DNA of 64,000 nucleotides from Candidatus Limnocylindrales bacterium (GTDB lineage: Bacteria > Chloroflexota > Dormibacteria > CF-121). Position 1 is the stretch's first letter, and each line of letters begins with the position of its first letter. The stretch lies in NCBI GenBank assembly GCA_035632635.1, contig DASQGL010000068.1, forward strand, positions 10,895 to 74,894. The letters run 5' to 3'. Under the pieces are notes generated by a model that saw nothing but the letters and a program-made list of their open reading frames with translations, did no database searches and had not been told where the DNA came from. The translations under genes were made by a program, and so were the position numbers. Positions 8,360 to 61,052 of the stretch are shown here, piece by piece.

Positions 8360-8829
8360 ACATCCAGGAAGCCGTCGACGGACTCGAGTACCTGATCGGG
8401 CACAGCCGGCAGATCCCGCTGACCCGAACGGTGGTCATCGACCAGGAGGAAGCGCTGCAGCTGATCGACAACCTGCGGCTCGCGCTTCCCGATGAGATCA
8501 AGCAGGCGCGCTGGACTCTGCAGGAGCAGCAGCGCCTGCTGTCGGAGGCGCAGGCGGAAGCGGCTCGCATGATCAGCCAGGCGGGCGAGCGGGCGCAGAC
8601 CATGATCGGGCAGCAGGAGCTGTCGCGCCGCGCGGAAAGACAGGCGGAGACGATCTTGCGCGAGGCCACCGCGCGGGCCGACGAGGTCCGGCGGGCGGCG
8701 GATGCGTATGCCTGGGAGGTCATGCAGAACCTGGAGGCGCAGCTGCTCAAGACGGTGGCCACCGTGAAGAAGGGCGTCGAAGCGCTCCGGAAGCCCGAGC
8801 GCGTCTCCGAGCTCGCCCAAAGACGGTAG
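8356..8829 (+). CDS. Hypothetical coiled-coil protein (ATP-synthase-b/FliH-like helical pattern)
   Basis: 157 aa, predicted highly helical with Q/E/A/R-rich heptads. 4-nt overlap with coaD. Function unknown. Confidence 0.5.
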   Translation: MNIQEAVDGLEYLIGHSRQIPLTRTVVIDQEEALQLIDNLRLALPDEIKQARWTLQEQQRLLSEAQAEAARMISQAGERAQTMIGQQELSRRAERQAETILREATARADEVRRAADAYAWEVMQNLEAQLLKTVATVKKGVEALRKPERVSELAQRR

Positions 8830-10097: not shown

Positions 10098-10274
10098 ATG
10101 GCCCTCCCCAAGACTCGCTACGCCCATGCGCGCCAGGGCGAACGCCGCGCCCACCTGGCGTTGAAGCGCCCGCGACTCGTCGACTGCCCGCAGTGCCATC
10201 GGCCGAAGCGGCCGCACACGATCTGCCGGAACTGCGGGTATTACGACGGTCGCGAGGTCATCAAGACCGACTAG
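10098..10274 (+). CDS. rpmF: 50S ribosomal protein L32
   Basis: 58 aa, below the ORF-track size cutoff: MALPKTRYAHARQGERRAHLALKRPRLVDCPQCHRPKRPHTICRNCGYYDGREVIKTD. A TATAAT hexamer sits 8 nt upstream of the ATG. Confidence 0.85.
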   Translation: MALPKTRYAHARQGERRAHLALKRPRLVDCPQCHRPKRPHTICRNCGYYDGREVIKTD

Positions 10275-10331
10275 CCGGATCCCGCCACGGTCGCCTTCCT
10301 GTTTCCGGGTCAGGGCGCCCAGTTCGTCGGG

Positions 10332-12046: not shown

Positions 12047-12295
12047 ATGGACGGAAGCAATTACGAGAAGTTCAAGGGCATCGTCGCCGAGCAGCTCGGC
12101 GTCGAGCCCGAGCAGGTCACGCCCGACGCATCGTTCGTAGACGACTTGAACGCCGACTCGCTCGATCTCGTCGAGCTGATCATGGCGTTCGAGGAAGAAT
12201 ACAGTTTGGAGATCTCTGACGAGGACGCCGAAAAGATTCAGACCGTCGGGCAAGCCTGGGACTACGTCCAGGAAAAGCTCGGCATCACCACCTAA
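12047..12295 (+). CDS. acpP: Acyl carrier protein
   Basis: 82 aa with the [11 protein letters not shown] (DSL) motif. SD AAGGGG 7 nt upstream and a TACAAT -10 at 12009. Confidence 0.92.
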
Positions 12296-12464
12296 GTCAC
12301 CGAAGCCGCCCGCGGCCGAGGGAGAAGACCCGCTCGCCAATCTGCAGCGAACGCTGAGGGTCCGCTTCCACGACCAGTCGCTGCTGCGGCAGGCGCTGAC
12401 GCATCGTTCCTACAACAACGAGCATCCGGAGAGCGGGCTCCAGGACAATGAGCGCCTCGAGTAC

Positions 12465-13067
12465 TTGGGAGACGCCGTGCTCGAGCTGATCGCGGCCGAG
12501 CACCTGTTTCACACCTACCAGACGTCTGACGAGGGCGAACTGACCCGGCTCCGGGCCTCGGTTGTCAACACGAAGAGCCTGGCGCGCCTCGCGTCCCGGT
12601 TGAGCCTGGGTGACTACCTGCTGCTCGGCAAGGGCGCCCACAAGACGGGCGCGCGATCGCTGCAGTCGATCCTGGCGAACACGTTCGAGGCGGTCATCGG
12701 CGCCATCTTCCTCGACCAGGGGTACCGCTCCGCCTACCGCCTGTTCAGCCGGAGCCTGATCGATGTCCAGGCCTGGCCGGATGACAACTACAAGGGCAGG
12801 CTGCAGGAGGTGACCCAGGAGCGGTTCCTGACGACCCCGCAGTACGACATCGTCTCCGCCTCCGGCCCGGGGCACCGCCGCGAGTACGTGGCCGAGGTCA
12901 CCTTCGGCGGCGCGACCCAGGGTACCGGCCGGGGCCGGACCAAGCGCGCGGCCGAGCAGCTGGCGGCGCGCGAGGCGCTCGCCGGCCTGGGTGCGCTGGA
13001 GCCGGTGCCGCACACGGCCGATGACGCGGTCCTCGACGCGGTCGCCGGCCAACCCGCTCGGAGTTAG
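12465..13067 (+). CDS. rnc: Ribonuclease III. 12465 (TTG) is the first canonical start; the true N-terminus is upstream, about 12342–12351.
   Basis: The ERLEYLGDA signature and dsRBD are present. The conserved FHDQSLLRQALTHRSY...ERLEY is encoded upstream of the TTG, with no canonical start between the TGA at 12177 and 12465. Confidence 0.85.
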   Translation: MGDAVLELIAAEHLFHTYQTSDEGELTRLRASVVNTKSLARLASRLSLGDYLLLGKGAHKTGARSLQSILANTFEAVIGAIFLDQGYRSAYRLFSRSLIDVQAWPDDNYKGRLQEVTQERFLTTPQYDIVSASGPGHRREYVAEVTFGGATQGTGRGRTKRAAEQLAAREALAGLGALEPVPHTADDAVLDAVAGQPARS

Positions 13068-21669: not shown

Positions 21670-22083
21670 GTGTCGAACCTGATCGATCTCCTGAACAAGG
21701 AGACGGAGCGCGAGAAGCTCCCCAGCCTGACCCCCGGTGACACCGTCAAGGTGCACGCCCGCGTCGTCGAGGGCAACCGCGAGCGGGTCCAGATCTTCGA
21801 GGGGGTCGTGATCGGCTGCCGGGGCGCCGGCGCCAAGCAGACGTTCACGGTGCGCCGCATCGCACACGGCGTCGGCGTCGAACGGAGCTTCCTCCTGCAC
21901 TCACCCCGGATCGACCGGATCGACGTCGTCCGTCACGGCAAGGTCCGCAGGGCCAAGCTGTACTACCTTCGGGGCAAGGTGGGACGGGGAGCCCGTATCC
22001 AGGAGAAACGCCAGGCCATTGCACAGAGCGGCGCTGCCAGCCGAGAAGCCGAAACCGAAACGCCCGAAGCCTCGGAAAGCTGA
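21670..22083 (+). CDS. rplS: 50S ribosomal protein L19
   Basis: GTG start. FRPGDTVKV-like N-terminus and the RRAKLYYLR motif. Confidence 0.9.
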
Positions 22084-24464: not shown

Positions 24465-25982
24465 GTGGGCGAGGTGCTGGGACGGGCGCTGACCGGGACG
24501 GTCAACGGTCTGGAGGGGGTCCGGATCGATGTCGAGGCGGACATCGCCCAGGGGCTGCCCGGGTTCCACATCGTGGGACTGGCCGATCGCGCGCTCCAGG
24601 AGGCCCGGGAGCGGGTCAAGATCGCGATGAACAACAGCGAGATCGAGTTTCCGGCCCTCAAGGTCACGGTCAACCTGGCCCCCGCCCAGCTACCCAAGGA
24701 GGGAAGCGGCTTCGACCTGGCGATCGCGGTCGCGATCATGAGCGCGAAGCTCGGGTGCCCGCTGCCGGTCGGGGCGGCGTGGCTGGGCGAGCTCGCGCTC
24801 AACGGTGAGGTGCGAAGCGTCCGGGGCGTGCTCGCCATTATCGGGCACCTGGCCCGGGCCGGGGCCCGCCGCTTCTACGTCCCGGCCGCCAACCTGATCG
24901 AAGCGCGCCTGGCCACGATCTTCCCCGTCCACCCGGTGCGGGACCTCCGGCAGGTCAAACGGCATCTCGTGGAGGGGACGCCGCTGCTCGAGCCCGACCC
25001 GGCCTCGGCCGAGACGACGCCCCCAGGCACCGACACCGTCGACCTGGCGGAGGTTCGCGGCCAGGCGCTCGCCAAGCGGGCGCTCGAAGTCGCGGCGGCC
25101 GGAGCGCATCATCTTTTAATGGTGGGGCCGCCGGGCGCCGGCAAGACCCTGCTGGCACGCACCGTGCCGGGGATCATGCCACCGCTCAGCCCGGCGGAGG
25201 CGCTCGAGGTGACCACGATCGCCTCCTGCGTCGGGCTGCTCCCTCCGGGAGGCGGGTTGCGCACCGAGCCCCCGTTCCGCTCGCCGCACCACACGATTTC
25301 GACCGCCGCCTTGATCGGCGGCGGGCCGATGTGGCCGCGGCCCGGCGAAGTCACGAGGGCGCATCGGGGGGTTCTCTTCCTGGACGAAATCAATGAGTTC
25401 CGGCGGGATGCTCTCGAGGGCTTGCGCCAACCGCTCGAAGAGGGCCGGCTCGTCCTCGGTCGGACGCGAGGGCACAGCACGCTCCCGGGTCGGTTCCTGC
25501 TCATCGCCGCCGCCAATCCATGCCCCTGCGGCTTCGCCGGAGATCCCCGGCGCCCGTGCGAATGCACGCCGCCGCTTCGCCAGCGATATCGGGCGCGCCT
25601 GTCCGGCCCGATCCGCGACCGGATCGACTTGCAGGTGCTCGTTCCCCGGCCCGCCTCGGCCGACCTGCTGCGGCAGGGCGAGCCCGGCGAGGAGAGCGCG
25701 CTGGTGCGCGACCGGGTGCGCGCGGCGCGAGCCCGCCAGGCGGCGCGACGGCCGGACGGTCCGCTGAACGGGGCGCTCTCCGGCGTGCAGCTGCGGCGCG
25801 ACGCCCGCCTCGACGAGGCGGGAATCGTCCTGCTCGAGCGGGCGGCCGAGCGTCTCCACCTGAGCGGGCGGGCGGTTCACCGCGTGGTCCGCGTCGCGCG
25901 GACGATCGCGGATCTGGCCGCCGTCGACGAGATTCGGGCCGTGGACGTCGCGGAGGCTCTCCAATTTCGCGAGACCGGCTGA
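24465..25982 (+). CDS. comM: Mg-chelatase-like AAA+ protein ComM/YifB
   Basis: N-terminal Lon-like domain, Walker A (GPPGAGKT), and a C-terminal EALQFRE motif. GTG at 24465; the upstream part of the listed ORF is an antisense artefact. Confidence 0.85.
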   Translation: MGEVLGRALTGTVNGLEGVRIDVEADIAQGLPGFHIVGLADRALQEARERVKIAMNNSEIEFPALKVTVNLAPAQLPKEGSGFDLAIAVAIMSAKLGCPLPVGAAWLGELALNGEVRSVRGVLAIIGHLARAGARRFYVPAANLIEARLATIFPVHPVRDLRQVKRHLVEGTPLLEPDPASAETTPPGTDTVDLAEVRGQALAKRALEVAAAGAHHLLMVGPPGAGKTLLARTVPGIMPPLSPAEALEVTTIASCVGLLPPGGGLRTEPPFRSPHHTISTAALIGGGPMWPRPGEVTRAHRGVLFLDEINEFRRDALEGLRQPLEEGRLVLGRTRGHSTLPGRFLLIAAANPCPCGFAGDPRRPCECTPPLRQRYRARLSGPIRDRIDLQVLVPRPASADLLRQGEPGEESALVRDRVRAARARQAARRPDGPLNGALSGVQLRRDARLDEAGIVLLERAAERLHLSGRAVHRVVRVARTIADLAAVDEIRAVDVAEALQFRETG

Positions 25983-26848
25983 TCCTCGACCGCGGCCAGC
26001 CCGGCTATCCGGAGCTGCTCGCGGAGATCCCCGACCCGCCCGACCGGCTGTACCTGCGGGGCGTGATGCCGGCCGGGGTCATGATCGCGATCGTCGGCTC
26101 GCGCCGGGCGACTCCGTACGGGCTTCGGGTTGCACAGACGCTCGCCCGCGACTTCGTTCGGGCGGGCGCCGTCGTCGTCAGCGGCCTGGCCCGGGGCATC
26201 GATGCGGCCGCCCACGAGGGCGCGATCGAGGGGGGCGGCAAGACCGTGGCGGTGCTCGCCACCGGACTCGACCCCGTGTATCCGCCCGAGCACACCGCGC
26301 TCGCCGACCGGGTGGCGCGCCACGGCGCGCTGCTGAGCGAGGTGCCCGATGGGACCGTGCCCTTGCCGGGCCGGTTCCCCATCCGCAACCGGATCATCAG
26401 CGGGCTCAGCCGTGGACTCGTGATCGTGGAGGCAGCCGCACGCAGCGGTGCGTTGATCACGGCCCGCATGGCGCTCGAGCAGGGGCGCGAAGTCTTCGCG
26501 GTGCCCGGCAGCATCGAGAATCCGATGACGGCCGGAACCCATGCGCTGATTCAGGATGGCGCGGCGCTCGTGCAGAGCGCGGAGGACGTGCTGCGCGTCA
26601 TGGGTGAGCTTCCCCTCGTGCACGCGCACACTCGCGCGCGCGTACGCGCGAGCGCGGGGCCCCGGGAGCCCGAATTGGCCGCCGTTTGGGAGTTGCTCGA
26701 CTGGGTAGAACCCCGCCATCATGATGAATTGGCGGCTTTGCTCGGACTCCCGGTGCAAGAAGTGAGTCGCCGCTTGACTTTGCTGGAGATGGGCAACTAT
26801 ATAATCGGCGACTGCGGTGCCGTGACTCGCCGCCCACACATGAGCTGA
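25964..26848 (+). CDS. dprA: DNA processing protein DprA/Smf (Rossmann + C-terminal winged helix; no N-terminal SAM domain)
   Basis: GYPELLAEIPDPPDRLYLRG and IAIVGSRRATPYG motifs. The conserved region begins before the first canonical start (GTG 26063 / ATG 26066). A candidate ATT at 25964 has a GGAGG SD 7 nt upstream. Confidence 0.8.
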   Translation: MSRDRLILDRGQPGYPELLAEIPDPPDRLYLRGVMPAGVMIAIVGSRRATPYGLRVAQTLARDFVRAGAVVVSGLARGIDAAAHEGAIEGGGKTVAVLATGLDPVYPPEHTALADRVARHGALLSEVPDGTVPLPGRFPIRNRIISGLSRGLVIVEAAARSGALITARMALEQGREVFAVPGSIENPMTAGTHALIQDGAALVQSAEDVLRVMGELPLVHAHTRARVRASAGPREPELAAVWELLDWVEPRHHDELAALLGLPVQEVSRRLTLLEMGNYIIGDCGAVTRRPHMS

Positions 26849-49011: not shown

Positions 49012-49362
49012 GTGCAGGGCGTGTGGCAATGGGGAGTGCTGCTGCTGGGTGTCGGTTTCTTCTTGCTCAGCCTCGTCGCCTGCTATATCCTGCTCAACCT
49101 GACCCGGAGCCTGCGGACCGTTGAAGCGATCCTGGCCGTGACCCTCGATGAGGTCAAGGTCGCCCTCCCGGAGATGCGCCACAGCGTGGTCCAGATCGAC
49201 GACATGGTCACCAGCGTGAACGAGAAGTTCATGGCGGCAGATCGGGCGGTGGATGCGACCGGGGCCGCGATCACCGGGTGGCGCGACCGGCTCCGGGAGC
49301 GCTTCGACGGTTTGTCCGCCTGGACCAGGAGCCGGGGCGGCAAGAAGGAGAACAGCGTATGA
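49012..49362 (+). CDS. DUF948-like membrane protein (N-terminal TM + helical domain)
   Basis: 116 aa, ATGA-coupled to the downstream anti-sigma gene. AGGAGG upstream but distant. Confidence 0.55.
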   Translation: MQGVWQWGVLLLGVGFFLLSLVACYILLNLTRSLRTVEAILAVTLDEVKVALPEMRHSVVQIDDMVTSVNEKFMAADRAVDATGAAITGWRDRLRERFDGLSAWTRSRGGKKENSV

Positions 49363-49856
49363 AGGAGAGCCACAGCCGGGCGCACAGCGCGCCAACCGGG
49401 CATGTCCAAACCCCCGCCGCCGCCTCCGCCGCGCTCATCACCGAGATGAAGCTGCCCGCGGTCGAGGACTACATCCTGGCGGCGAAGCGGGCAGCCGGCG
49501 CCCTCGGCCTCGTGGTCGGCTTCTCGCTGCAGGAGATCGATGAACTGAACATCGCCGTGACCCAGGCTTGCGAGAACGGGATCGCGGCGGCCAACGAGCA
49601 ATGGGGTCGCGGCAACGGACAGCTCAAACTGCTCTTCAAGACCCAGCCTCGCCGCCTCGAGGTCGAGGTGCGCAGCGTTCCGCCCCGGGCGGTGGAGCTG
49701 CAGCAGGCGGTTCGCCAGGCCCGCCGCGAACAGGAATTCGACTACGAGACGGTTGGCGTCAATATGATCCGTCTCTTCGTCGATGAGCTCCGGTACCATC
49801 GGGACCATCAGACGGGAGTCATGCGGATGAGGATGGTCAAATACCTGATCGAGTAG
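49359..49856 (+). CDS. RsbW/SpoIIAB-like anti-sigma factor with degenerate ATP-binding motifs
   Basis: The N-terminus aligns with RsbW (EDYILAAKRAAGALG...DELNIAVTQACENGI). The DxGxG and GxGL boxes are not recognisable. AAGGAG SD 8 nt upstream. Confidence 0.7.
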   Translation: MKESHSRAHSAPTGHVQTPAAASAALITEMKLPAVEDYILAAKRAAGALGLVVGFSLQEIDELNIAVTQACENGIAAANEQWGRGNGQLKLLFKTQPRRLEVEVRSVPPRAVELQQAVRQARREQEFDYETVGVNMIRLFVDELRYHRDHQTGVMRMRMVKYLIE

Positions 49857-53240: not shown

Positions 53241-54508
53241 TGCTGAAGCTCAAACAGCGGTTCAAGCGGATGCGGCGAGGCCAGGAGTACGCCAACCTCT
53301 ATACGGCGCTCGATATCGGGACCGAGTACATCAAGGCGCTCGTGGTGCGCCGGGAAGGCCGCAACGGCGTCGTGCTGGGCGCCTCGCGGGAGCGTCAGGC
53401 GTTTGCCGACATGCAGGCGGGTGTGCCCTCCGACATCCAGGGCATCATCGAGACCTGCGACAGGGCGATGTCCCGGGCGGAGGACATGTGCGACACGATC
53501 CCGGGCCAGGCCGTGATCGGGATCGCCGGCGAGCAGGTCAAGGGGTTCAGCACGTCGGTCACCGTGCCGCGGGCGGACCCGCAGCTGAAGATCAACGAGG
53601 TCGAGCTGATGCAGACGCTGCAGCTGGTCGAGAAGCGGGCCATGCGCGAGGCGCGCCACCTGATGAGCCTCGAGCTGGGCGTCCCCGACGTCGACGTCAA
53701 GCTGATCAACTCGGCGATCACCAACGTCCGGATCGACGGGTTCGCGGTCACGAACCCACTGGATTTCCAGGGCAAGCAGATGATCGTCACGGCTTTCAAC
53801 ACCTTTGCGCCCCTGACGCAGATCGGCGCCCTGCAGACGATCGCGTCGGAGCTGGATCTCGAGCTGGTGGCGGCCGTCGCGGAACCGTATGCGATGGCGC
53901 GCTGCGTCGCGACCGACGAGGTCTATGACTTCGGGGCCATCTTCATCGACATCGGCGGGGGCACGACCGATGTCGCGCTCGTGCGCAACGGCGGCATCGA
54001 GGGAACGCGGATGTTCCCGATCGGGGGCCGGGTCTTCACGAAGAAGCTGGCCGCTCGCTTCAGCCTGTCCTTTCAGGACGCCGAGGCGGTCAAGCTCCGG
54101 CATTCGAAAGGCGAGCTGCCCCAGGGGCAGGAGGAGCGGGTGCGCCAGGTGCTGTCGAAGGACGCAGAGGTCCTGGTCGAGGGTGTCGCGATCACCCTCC
54201 AGGAGATGGCGAAGGGCGATCGGCTGCCCCACGCGATCTACCTCGCCGGAGGGGGAAGCGCCCTGCCGGAGGTTCGCCAGCAGCTCGAGGCCTTCGAGTG
54301 GACCCGGCTGCCGTTCGGGCGTGCCCCGGTGATCGGCGTGCTCCGGCCGCAGGACGTGCGCGGCATCTACGATTCGACCGGGTTGCTCCTCGACCAGCAG
54401 GACATCACGCCCATGGGGCTCGCCTTCCACGCCATCCAGCAGGGCGCCGGCGAGGACGGCCCCCTGCACACGGTCATGCGCAAGGTCCTCAAGGCGATGA
54501 AGGTATGA
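53240..54508 (+). CDS. Actin-fold ATPase, divergent FtsA/PilM-like
   Basis: Phosphate-1 ALDIGTEYIKALVV, phosphate-2 IFIDIGGGTTDVALV, adenosine motif IYLAGGGSALP. 422 aa. Not in a division/cell-wall cluster context. Confidence 0.7.
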   Translation: MLKLKQRFKRMRRGQEYANLYTALDIGTEYIKALVVRREGRNGVVLGASRERQAFADMQAGVPSDIQGIIETCDRAMSRAEDMCDTIPGQAVIGIAGEQVKGFSTSVTVPRADPQLKINEVELMQTLQLVEKRAMREARHLMSLELGVPDVDVKLINSAITNVRIDGFAVTNPLDFQGKQMIVTAFNTFAPLTQIGALQTIASELDLELVAAVAEPYAMARCVATDEVYDFGAIFIDIGGGTTDVALVRNGGIEGTRMFPIGGRVFTKKLAARFSLSFQDAEAVKLRHSKGELPQGQEERVRQVLSKDAEVLVEGVAITLQEMAKGDRLPHAIYLAGGGSALPEVRQQLEAFEWTRLPFGRAPVIGVLRPQDVRGIYDSTGLLLDQQDITPMGLAFHAIQQGAGEDGPLHTVMRKVLKAMKV

Positions 54509-54557
54509 GCGCCGAAGGTTACACCGTAACCGCTCGACAGACGATGCCGTTTGCGGT

Positions 54558-56222
54558 ATGACTGACGGCGGCGAGCGACCGATCTTGGCGACGGAGAGTG
54601 AAATGAAGACGCTGGCGAAGTTGCTCTACGTGGAGGCGGACGAGGAGGTGACTGACCTCGTCGACCGGCTCCGCGCCCTCCAGGACGAGGACGCGGTCAG
54701 CTTTGTCGTGCCCGATCGGGCCCGCGCGCTCCAGAGCCCGATGTCGTTCCGGCTGCTCAAGCGCTACGCCGACGCCTACGGGAAGCACGTGAACCTGATC
54801 AGCTCGGACCCGCGCCTCCAGGCGCTGGCGCTGGAGTCCGGCTTCTCCGCCTACCCGACGCTCGCCGCCTACGAGTCCGGGGCGGAGGTCCACCGTCCGG
54901 GAGAGAGCGCCGACTCGGCCCAGGCGGAAGGGCCGGTTGGGGCGGCGGCTGCCGTCGCGGTCGCCGAGCCGGTCCTGGCCGGCGTCGCCGAGTCCGCCGC
55001 TCCGCCGTACGCCCGGACCCGGACGCAGGACGTCGTCTCCGCGCCGCCGCGCAAGCCGGTGGCCGCGCCCGCGGACCGCGGGCGGGTCGTCAAGCCTCCG
55101 CGCGACAGGCGGCTGTTCGCGATCGGCGGGGGCGTCGTCGCGCTGCTGGCGCTCGTCTTCGCGGTGCTGTTTGTGCCCACGGCCGACGTGCGCCTGACCG
55201 TGACTGGGACGCCGCTCAAGACCGACATGCAGCTGATCGGGCAGCCCAACCCGGTGTCGGGCACGATCGACCACTTCCCAACCCAGGCGATCAGCGCCAC
55301 GGAGAGTCTCACCGCGCAGGGCACCGCCACCGGTCAGAAGCAGATTCCGGCGATAGCGGCGACGGGCCAGGTGGTCTTCAAGAACAACTCACACTTCGTC
55401 GTTCAGTTCCCACGCAATACCGAAGTAGGCGCCGGAGGAAATGTGAGATTCCGGACGCAGGCCGCGACCGAGTTCCTCTTACCGGGTAGCTCCTCCAAGA
55501 GCATTCCGATTACGGCCGAGAACGCCGGCGCGAGTGGCGACGTCGCTGCAAACGCGATAACGATCATCTATCCGACGGATCAGACTCAAGACTTCGCCGT
55601 CAACAATGCGCAAGCGACCGGCGGTGGTGCCGATCAGCGCGTCGCCACGGTCATCCAGCAATCGGACATCGATGCCGTGAGCCAGGCGCTCACCTCGCAG
55701 CTCAACCCGAAGGTCCAGGACGACCTGAACGGCAAGGCGAAGGGGCAGCACCTGATCGCCCCGGACCAGCCGAAGGTTCAGACACAGACGGATCACCAGC
55801 TGGGCGACGAGACCGCGAACTTCAACATGACCATGACGATCACGGCGAGCGGCGTCACCTTCGACAACGCCCAGGTCACCAGGCTGCTGCGCGACGCGCT
55901 CCAGCGCAAGGTGCCGGTCGGCTCGCAGCTGCTCCAGGACCCGCAGCAGACCTCCTACGACGTCGCCCAGGCCACAAGTGACGGCAACGTGACGCTCAAC
56001 GGCCACGCGTCCGGCTACACGGTGATCGTCTTCTCCCAGGAGGCGATGCGGGCGCACATGAAGGGCCACTCGCCGTCGTCCGCACGGGCGTTCCTGCAGG
56101 GCCTGCCGAACGTGGTCGACGTCAACCTGCGCCAGGATCCGATCGGCCTCCCGTGGCTGCCGTTCTTCTCCTCCCACATCACGATCCACATCCAGGAGGT
56201 CACCGGGACCGCGTCTCCGTGA
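54558..56222 (+). CDS. Single-pass membrane protein: N-terminal cytoplasmic α/β domain, A/P-rich linker, TM, and a ~330-aa T/Q/N-rich extracytoplasmic β-rich domain
   Basis: TM LFAIGGGVVALLALVFAVLFV at ~aa 200. Follows the FtsA-like gene 49 nt downstream. GTGA-coupled to ruvX. Confidence 0.6.
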   Translation: MTDGGERPILATESEMKTLAKLLYVEADEEVTDLVDRLRALQDEDAVSFVVPDRARALQSPMSFRLLKRYADAYGKHVNLISSDPRLQALALESGFSAYPTLAAYESGAEVHRPGESADSAQAEGPVGAAAAVAVAEPVLAGVAESAAPPYARTRTQDVVSAPPRKPVAAPADRGRVVKPPRDRRLFAIGGGVVALLALVFAVLFVPTADVRLTVTGTPLKTDMQLIGQPNPVSGTIDHFPTQAISATESLTAQGTATGQKQIPAIAATGQVVFKNNSHFVVQFPRNTEVGAGGNVRFRTQAATEFLLPGSSSKSIPITAENAGASGDVAANAITIIYPTDQTQDFAVNNAQATGGGADQRVATVIQQSDIDAVSQALTSQLNPKVQDDLNGKAKGQHLIAPDQPKVQTQTDHQLGDETANFNMTMTITASGVTFDNAQVTRLLRDALQRKVPVGSQLLQDPQQTSYDVAQATSDGNVTLNGHASGYTVIVFSQEAMRAHMKGHSPSSARAFLQGLPNVVDVNLRQDPIGLPWLPFFSSHITIHIQEVTGTASP

Positions 56223-61013: not shown

Positions 61014-61052
61014 ACGGGCAGGCGACACCTGGCCCGGGAGCTCGCGCTGAAG

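Follow-up and report, generated by a model that had tools for sequence, protein, structure and literature searches.

The rnc gene, encoding ribonuclease III (RNase III), in a soil bacterium of Candidatus Dormibacterota very probably begins at a non-canonical codon upstream of position 12324 of the DNA analysed here. That DNA (the window) is a stretch of 64,000 nucleotides (nt) with 69% G+C, taken from contig DASQGL010000068.1 of assembly GCA_035632635.1 (positions 10,895 to 74,894). Comparison with relatives leads us to propose, with a probability of roughly 0.55, that the start lies in a cluster of near-cognate codons at 12216–12227, inside the upstream gene acpP and in another frame. Dormibacterota is an abundant soil phylum and its genomes in our searches were all metagenome-derived; the metagenome-assembled genomes with related loci are labelled Candidatus Dormibacterota, Limnocylindria or by older 'Chloroflexi CF_' names.

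Coding upstream of the first canonical start of rnc

The rnc frame is closed by a TGA at 12177–12179 and is then open from 12180 to 13067. Its earliest ATG, GTG or TTG is the TTG at 12465–12467, which encodes the Leu of the catalytic signature NERLEYLGD (12447–12473, + strand); the positions of the TGA and the TTG agree with the original prediction. The codons upstream of this TTG encode ...EDPLANLQRTLRVRFHDQSLLRQALTHRSYNNEHPESGLQDNERLEY. The NCBIfam model TIGR02191 (RNase III) matches the frame with 231.6 bits (cut-off 166.25) over profile positions 1–217 of 219, and profile position 1 falls on the Leu codon at 12342, which confirms that an RNase III N-terminus is encoded ahead of the first canonical start. 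The Pfam families Ribonucleas_3_3 (PF14622, 138.8 bits) and Ribonuclease_3 (PF00636, 92.8 bits) also score above threshold, as does the double-stranded RNA-binding domain (dsRBD) family dsrm (PF00035, 52.7 bits, cut-off 23). The product thus has the attributes of a bacterial class 1 RNase III: a catalytic domain with the signature, the acidic residues downstream of it and a C-terminal dsRBD. The E, D and N residues of the enzyme are invariant in an alignment of 27 sequences.

A scan of species-representative genomes gave 41 loci with an RNase III at 77–93% identity, 38 of which contain the signature. Conservation of near-cognate codons was counted over 37 sequences and acpP codons were analysed over 35 unique orthologues; for the 5' part of rnc, entropy by codon position was calculated over 35 orthologues that share a common spacer length. 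No column upstream of NERLEYLGD holds a conserved ATG, GTG or TTG in the 38 related loci. Since a run of 41 real codons free of all three triplets has a chance of ~11% at the codon usage of this genome, the anomaly is the missing start and not the length of the run. The comparison shows that the clade lacks a canonical start, and it supports the earlier view that translation has to begin upstream of 12465 without ATG, GTG or TTG.

The same comparison shows how far upstream translation must reach. Counting back from the Asn of NERLEYLGD, codons −41 (position 12324) to −1 are almost invariant at their first and second positions and free at the third. Summed over codons −39 to −29, entropy amounts to 2.5, 0.4 and 12.8 bits at codon positions 1, 2 and 3. 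This conserved 5' segment encodes (D/E)(D/E)PLQKLQRTLRV. As positions 1 and 2 of codons −41 to −29 (12324–12362) are invariant and position 3 is free, these codons are translated, and the conserved part of rnc, with RNase III domain, dsRBD and stop codon, spans 12324–13067 (+ strand). The whole length of the gene is under strong purifying selection. An AlphaFold2 model of a 283-amino-acid (aa) form, built from the 27-sequence alignment, has a mean predicted local distance difference test (pLDDT) score of 79, with values above 85 over most of residues 39–263. Helix 1 is predicted at residues 39–47 (12330–12356) with a pLDDT of ~93, and the alpha-beta-beta-beta-alpha element of the dsRBD at residues 192–257.

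A near-cognate cluster inside acpP

The gene immediately 5' of rnc is acpP (12047–12295, + strand), which encodes an acyl carrier protein (ACP) of 82 aa. It begins at ATG 12047 behind an AGGGG and carries the DSLD motif at 12155; the PP-binding domain is found in relatives. Its stop codon (12293–12295, + strand) is TAA in the window and TGA in most relatives, and the rnc frame is the +1 frame relative to acpP. The genes for an MFS transporter, rpmF, fabD, fabG, acpP, rnc, smc and ftsY follow one another in this order, all on the + strand, and no promoter-like or + strand terminator-like site was found between acpP and rnc.

The proposed main start is the CTG at 12216–12218 (+ strand), 77 nt before the first base of the acpP stop and present in 37 of 37 sequences. 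Beside it stands ACG AGG ACG (12219–12227, + strand), with two near-cognates that could be alternative or additional starts; ACG occurs at −74 and −68 nt in all 37. A Shine-Dalgarno (SD)-like GGAG (12208–12211, + strand) lies 4 nt before CTG 12216 and 7 nt before ACG 12219, in an xTG GAG context that is invariant (35/35), and GGAG or GGAGG also precedes several canonical starts in the window. In two relatives NCBI annotates rnc from this very CTG (TMD38525.1/TME46508.1, our P0001, 281 aa, MTRTPKRF...). In two loci, L029 and L038, a TGA in the rnc frame stands four codons before the CTG and so sets a 5' limit to the start.

The acpP codons that carry these elements are unusual. Codons 12–21 (GAG GAA GAA TAC AGT TTG GAG ATC TCT GAC; 12191–12220, + strand), the proposed initiation region of rnc, form the 10-codon window of acpP with the lowest synonymous entropy (0.23 bit), and in a sliding-window analysis they are also the stretch of the gene richest in rare codons. 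Because CTG 12216 overlaps acpP codon 20 out of frame, it needs T at the third position of that codon. Codon 20 is CCT in 30 unique sequences and TCT in five, so the T is retained despite the change between Pro and Ser, and both codons are rare: in the window CCT makes up 3.4% of Pro codons and TCT 1.4% of Ser codons, while ATA, found at the preceding codon, makes up 0.4% of Ile codons. The ACGs at 12219 and 12225 depend on GAC at acpP codons 21 and 23, which is present in 35 of 35. The conservation of CTG 12216 exceeds what coding in the overlapping frame and codon bias explain. Upstream of it there is also a TANNNT box, in the window and L001 and not in the rest of the clade.

An autoregulatory RNase III hairpin was considered as the reason for the frozen codons and rejected: RNAalifold on 22 sequences found no conserved RNA structure at the 3' end of acpP and the 5' end of rnc, with a covariation term of −0.2 kcal/mol and any double change in 2 of 36 pairs.

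A sister clade of four unique loci, with RNase III 73–78% identical, offers a view of the earlier state. There rnc starts at a TTG that overlaps the acpP stop (AGT TGA), in −1 phase. At the acpP sites in question this clade has ordinary ATC TCC, GAT at codon 23 and GAC or GAT at codon 21, and none of the four loci has a +1 CTG or ACG there. By this comparison the TTGA overlap is the ancestral arrangement, which the window clade has lost. Since the sister clade has neither feature, the clade without a canonical start is the clade with the silent acpP changes that make CTG ACG AGG ACG. Comparison of the two clades thus shows an atypical and conserved CTG context that correlates with the loss of TTG.

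Stop/start overlaps of the types ATGA, GTGA and TTGA, with coupling of termination to reinitiation, are well documented (Huber et al. 2019, PMC6728339). The rnc of the sister clade (TTGA) belongs among them, as do dprA (CTGA), nusB (TAG ACG) and the MFS transporter gene of the window, each with a near-cognate in place of the canonical codon. The rnc of the window clade differs from such systems in having moved from the −1 to the +1 phase of acpP. In the 37 sequences of this clade no start-type or near-cognate codon is conserved within 25 nt of the acpP stop, and classical overlap coupling is inapplicable to its rnc because no start-type codon remains at the stop.

We propose that rnc is an intact and expressed RNase III gene that would be co-transcribed with acpP, and that the window clade has lost the ancestral TTG overlapping the acpP stop. 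A minority of ribosomes would initiate inside acpP at CTG 12216, possibly also at ACG 12219 and ACG 12225, served by the GGAG at 12208–12211 and by a run of rare acpP codons rich in A and T. The CTG would be read as Met by initiator tRNA, and translation would continue in the +1 frame past the acpP stop and across the spacer. The predicted product of 283 aa would comprise a disordered basic tail of ~36 residues and, encoded from 12324 onwards, the conserved RNase III domain followed by the dsRBD. From the position of the CTG in a very highly expressed gene we infer that a weak start would give a low ratio of RNase III to ACP. The proposal gains support from the same genome, which has near-cognate starts elsewhere, and from its rnhB, which likewise begins inside the preceding gene and encodes a basic tail.

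The predicted tail (12216–12323, + strand; 36 codons) is basic and rich in Ser and Pro, and residues 1–35 of the model have pLDDT values below 50. Its coding sequence overlaps acpP for 80 nt and then crosses a spacer of 28 nt (12296–12323), which in the 283-aa form would encode SPKPPAAEGEDPLANLQR. Codons −47 to −42 vary at all three positions in the 35 orthologues, and from the acpP stop to 12324 no near-cognate codon is conserved in the 37 sequences. Spacer lengths of 19, 22, 25 and 34 nt occur among relatives, with the phase of rnc relative to acpP constant and no in-frame stop in any orthologue. This suggests, if weakly (roughly p = 0.04), that the rnc reading frame is continuous from inside acpP. 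Synonymous sites of acpP 3' of the CTG vary about as much as elsewhere in the gene, and constraint on the tail is weak. N-terminal tails like this one are common in the RNase III proteins of more distant Dormibacterota, whose genes start at ATG.

Several points weigh against initiation in the cluster. All the support is comparative, and initiation in another frame inside a heavily translated open reading frame (ORF) should be inefficient. The 4-nt spacing between GGAG and CTG is short, and the 7-nt spacing favours ACG 12219; the GGAG is a putative SD in a window where many genes have no SD at all. The frozen rare codons of acpP could serve another purpose, even though the search for covarying RNA structure came up empty. 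That NCBI picked the CTG in two relatives is the output of an algorithm and not independent evidence, and a GTG at −44 nt could be the real start in ten relatives. The amino acids of the tail are poorly conserved, and the case for its translation consists of frame maintenance and freedom from stops: the former amounts to three length changes (the source of the p value of roughly 0.04), one of them a GCC triplet-repeat expansion, and the latter comes almost free in GC-rich sequence.

Alternative routes to RNase III

Initiation could occur, singly or in parallel, at other near-cognates in the acpP overlap, either at ACG 12264 or, in a subgroup, at the GTG at −44 nt. ACG 12264 is 29 nt before the acpP stop and in reach of ribosomes that have just terminated on acpP; an ACG is found at −29 nt in 36 of 37 sequences. 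An ACG is also the sole start available to fabD and replaces ATG in nusB of the same genome, and elsewhere in the window near-cognate starts are found no more than ~15 nt from an upstream stop. Conservation of ACG 12264 carries no signal, however, as this triplet is a free by-product of the preferred Tyr codon TAC followed by Val (GTN); it is missing from L001 and no SD-like motif precedes it. The GTG at −44 nt, in the rnc frame and inside acpP, occurs in 10 of 37 sequences (L015, L016, L018, L020, L025, L026, L031 and L033–L035) and is missing from most of the clade. It arises from the rare Gly codon GGT followed by GCC, and the loci that have it still keep the CTG/ACG cluster; it may be a later and stronger replacement start in this subgroup. 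Neither codon explains the frozen rare codons at acpP 12–21, and we consider this route unlikely.

A second route is reinitiation, after termination on acpP, at a codon of the spacer (12296–12323) that is not near-cognate to AUG. Overlaps such as the ancestral TTGA are where termination-reinitiation classically occurs (PMC6728339), the short spacer keeps a constant phase relative to the acpP stop, and in E. coli even codons that are not near-cognate initiate at 0.01–1% of the AUG level (bioRxiv 10.1101/063800). Against this, the spacer holds no conserved codon at all, as codons −47 to −42 illustrate, and there is no known mechanism for efficient restart on arbitrary codons. The constrained acpP block would again be left unexplained, which makes the route improbable.

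The original prediction placed the start within the conserved coding region itself, at CTG 12342 (12342–12344, + strand) or ACG 12351 (12351–12353, + strand), downstream of a purine-rich stretch, GAGGGAGAAG (12318–12327). All three are where it put them, the stretch lying 15–24 nt upstream. At least one near-cognate or canonical codon occurs between −35 and −29 in every relative, and some database proteins (P0003, P0004) are called from TTG or GTG codons there. Neither codon can readily be the main start, since conserved coding begins further 5', at 12324, and codons −41 to −33 show protein-type conservation, free at the third position. Each candidate aligns with a mixture of synonyms: at 12342 (residue 43) relatives have CTG, CTC, CTT, TTG or CTA, that is any Leu codon, and at 12351 (residue 46) 29 of 39 sequences have ACG and the others ACC, ACT, ACA or GCG. 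Of the Leu codons in the window 53% are CTG, and of the Thr codons 42% are ACG, so the presence of both is expected by chance. The GAGGGAG stretch is not found in most relatives, and in the structural model both codons fall within the confidently predicted helix 1, ACG 12351 at its end. A main start at either codon now seems a very doubtful proposition.

A programmed +1 frameshift at or near the end of acpP, yielding a low-frequency ACP-RNase III fusion, would agree with an rnc that is in the +1 frame of acpP in 37 of 37 sequences, is open from inside acpP and keeps its phase across indels. A shift at the stop codon (ACC TGA G) would recall antizyme and prfB. The latter, which encodes release factor 2, has a programmed +1 frameshift with a slippery codon of the CUU-U type and an SD-like stimulator 3 nt upstream. 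As in prfB, the downstream frame is +1 and open across the in-frame stop of the upstream frame; unlike prfB, acpP/rnc has neither slippery codon nor stimulator, its stop context is variable and two unrelated proteins are involved. The acpP frame ends with ACC or AGC, followed by TGA or TAA and then by G or A, and the resulting contexts (ACC TGA G, ACC TAA G, AGC TAA G, ACC TGA A) allow poor re-pairing and are not conserved. The stop is preceded by GAR AAG CTC GGM ATC ACC ACC, in which nothing resembles GGAGG and no SD-like stimulator stands 3 nt upstream. The constrained block lies 75–100 nt before the stop and is not slippery (ATA CCT GAC or ATC TCT GAC), and in the sister clade RNase III is a protein apart, translated from a TTG of rnc itself. 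A frameshift is thus highly improbable.

A sequencing or assembly error, which the original prediction had raised, or a pseudogene would be in keeping with a window that is a single metagenome-derived sequence whose own RNase III is not in the protein database, whereas its DprA is (HYM50142.1), but both are already effectively refuted by the alignment of orthologous loci, which gives the same arrangement without indels in 38 other genomes, by an independent assembly of a 99.6% identical strain (L129; Logan, SRR6788486) with six substitutions and no gaps over 1545 nt of fabG, acpP and rnc, and by the strong purifying selection over the entire protein. One of the six substitutions turns TTG 12465 into CTG. 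Exact-protein look-ups of the truncated nusB and rnc products, smc and P0241 returned no record, while those of P0121 and ACP succeeded.

Candidate near-cognate starts in other genes, and known systems

The original prediction counted at least six such genes in the window. Its claim stands for fabD, nusB, dprA, the sigma factor and the MFS transporter, in each of which the first canonical start comes after the beginning of a conserved N-terminus or Pfam domain, and fails for rnhB, a case it had named as possible, where an in-frame TTG at 22019 precedes the conserved part. With rnc, this makes six of the ~60 window genes screened by running Pfam or NCBIfam on stop-to-stop translations. All six are operon-internal, and their candidate starts lie from 80 nt before to 15 nt after an upstream stop. 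Ten control genes (rpmF, fabG, acpP, smc, hisS, aspS, a DUF948 gene, alaS, efp and asp23) keep ATG, GTG or TTG at the start column in the same set of relatives; controls were limited to gap-free N-termini, as back-extrapolation of start columns from tblastn is unreliable where the N-terminus has indels.

In fabD the ORF opens seven codons before FLFPGQG, and the ACG at 10287–10289 (+ strand) is the only near-cognate available as a start. A canonical start is missing from 27 of 39 loci, and a few relatives have ATG or GTG. In 13 loci the frame opens at most seven codons before FLFPGQG and leaves a single near-cognate, mostly ATC and otherwise CTG or ACG; three loci with longer open frames have ATT at the start column. 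In L018 the ORF reads TAA GCG ATC..., and therefore ATC must serve as the start there. The gene plsX usually sits between rpmF and fabD; in the window (10272–10300) and in L001–L047 fabD directly follows rpmF, and plsX is absent.

The candidate start of nusB is an ACG (61014–61016, + strand) directly after an upstream TAG, and three relatives with 83% identity have ATG at the aligned codon. Nearly all of the best 120 database homologues are full length (133–152 aa). The only truncated call (P0121, 121 aa, 98% identical) comes from an independent assembly (L128) whose DNA is identical to the window at the nusB start, TAG ACG included. This looks like a recent and tolerated change from ATG to ACG. 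For dprA, the CTG of CTG ATC (25979–25984, + strand) overlaps the comM stop (CTGA), and the first GTG comes after the conserved ILDRGQPGYP... segment. The proteins of relatives open with MIL... or MII... at this point, and NCBI starts HYM50142.1 at the next codon, ATC. The DprA of the window has no N-terminal extension ahead of the DprA domain.

The MFS_1 domain and first transmembrane segment of the MFS transporter are encoded upstream of its first ATG (8946), and its candidate start, for which the evidence comes from the window itself, is the ACG at 8823–8825 (+ strand), which overlaps an upstream stop (ACGGTAG). The sigma factor gene lies downstream of one for an RsbW-like kinase, and its Sigma70_r2 domain begins before the first GTG (49985). 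Here the stop and start overlap as TTGA in L055 and as CTGA in L053. In the window and three relatives this site reads GTAG, and the only near-cognate is a conserved ATA four codons upstream (49841–49843, + strand; 12 nt before the upstream stop), a possible start, which arises from a rare AAA Lys codon in the kinase gene. The ATG at 49446 was rejected as the start of the rsbW-like gene, being probably an internal Met; an upstream ATG is found at 49358.

One tentative explanation, which we regard as possible rather than probable, is a lineage-wide relaxation of start-codon selection, with about one gene in ten, operon-internal and adjoining or within the preceding gene, starting at CTG, ACG, ATC, ATT or ATA and with ACG in regular use. 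If so, starts would turn over rapidly, as from ATG to ACG in nusB, from (A/G/T)TG to CTG in dprA and among ATC, ATT, CTG, ACG and ATG in fabD. The fidelity of initiation factor 3 (IF3), of initiator tRNA or of the 30S P site would then be altered; alternatively, the lineage would rely heavily on ribosomes that have just terminated and evade proofreading by IF3. Scans of the window for tRNAs and Rfam families gave no matches, and hence no initiator tRNA or 16S rRNA there.

Near-cognate initiation is well known from other bacteria. In E. coli, infC and pcnB have the weak start AUU, and that of infC belongs to the autoregulatory loop of IF3. As in these two genes, a near-cognate start would hold down the synthesis of a protein that is regulatory or needed in small amounts; the IF3 loop sets infC apart in this comparison. 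We know of no natural ACG start annotated in E. coli and, to our knowledge, ACG is not among the start codons of translation table 11. In an E. coli assay of all 64 codons, CUG, AUA, AUC and AUU reached 1–2% of the AUG level and the class that includes ACG 0.1–1%, with Met at the N-terminus (Hecht et al., bioRxiv 10.1101/063800).

Deinococcus offers a closer parallel, with non-canonical starts found by N-terminal proteomics in dnaA (ATC), rpsL (CTG) and infC (ATA) (Baudet et al. 2010, PMC2830850). There, as in the window, housekeeping genes are affected, the conserved N-terminus extends upstream of any ATG, GTG or TTG and the near-cognate is kept among relatives; both lineages have high GC, are apparently rich in leaderless mRNAs and have starts misplaced by automatic annotation. 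The Deinococcus cases are backed by peptides, whereas those of the window are proposed from comparison. The rnc start would also differ in lying 80 nt inside the upstream gene in another frame, and ACG is apparently used as well. About six of 60 genes are affected in the window, against four genes reported for the entire D. deserti genome (PMC2830850). Near-cognate initiation as such is established and ordinary in principle. What would set the window apart is the proposed shift of a start into the upstream gene, in another frame, by way of silent substitutions, together with the apparent use of ACG and the high density of such genes. Our literature search found no published work tying Dormibacterota to start-codon usage.

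Public annotation of the clade reflects the missing starts. RNase III calls often have 195–200 aa, beginning at a Val or Leu codon after ERLEYLGD and without the catalytic residues (P0011, P0018–P0020 and a 196-aa call on L129, 929–1519); truncated calls in relatives span 195–210 aa. Among relatives NCBI calls of 281, 236 and 239 aa occur, some of them from scattered TTG or GTG codons. Gene callers restricted to ATG, GTG and TTG thus yield an RNase III without its catalytic Glu, and fabD, nusB, dprA and others in Dormibacterota meet the same problem; metabolic and phylogenomic inferences for the phylum depend on such calls. The acpP/rnc pair would illustrate how a gene survives the loss of its start, with a new weak start recruited in the upstream gene by silent changes. 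Should six in ~60 prove typical of the whole genome, this lineage would offer a natural setting in which to study what determines start-codon stringency, and near-cognate starts could tune the protein ratios of operons, for example abundant ACP against scarce RNase III.

Many genes of the window with canonical starts have no SD (upstream of 555, 7308, 10098, 21670, 34939, 44534 and others). The SD-less genes have a TANNNT box (TAGAAT, TATAAT, TAAGCT, TATCCT) 6–10 nt before ATG or GTG, a sign that leaderless mRNAs may be frequent, as they are in Deinococcus and Actinobacteria. The TTG 22019 of rnhB sits 65 nt inside rplS (ribosomal protein L19) in another frame, and the product, RNase HII, carries a basic tail rich in Lys and Pro, a layout like that proposed for rnc and acpP. 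Elsewhere in the window, a 573-codon ORF (54501–56222) between an FtsA/PilM-like gene and housekeeping genes has a weak Baseplate_J-like Pfam match (41.5 bits), which is unexpected in this setting.

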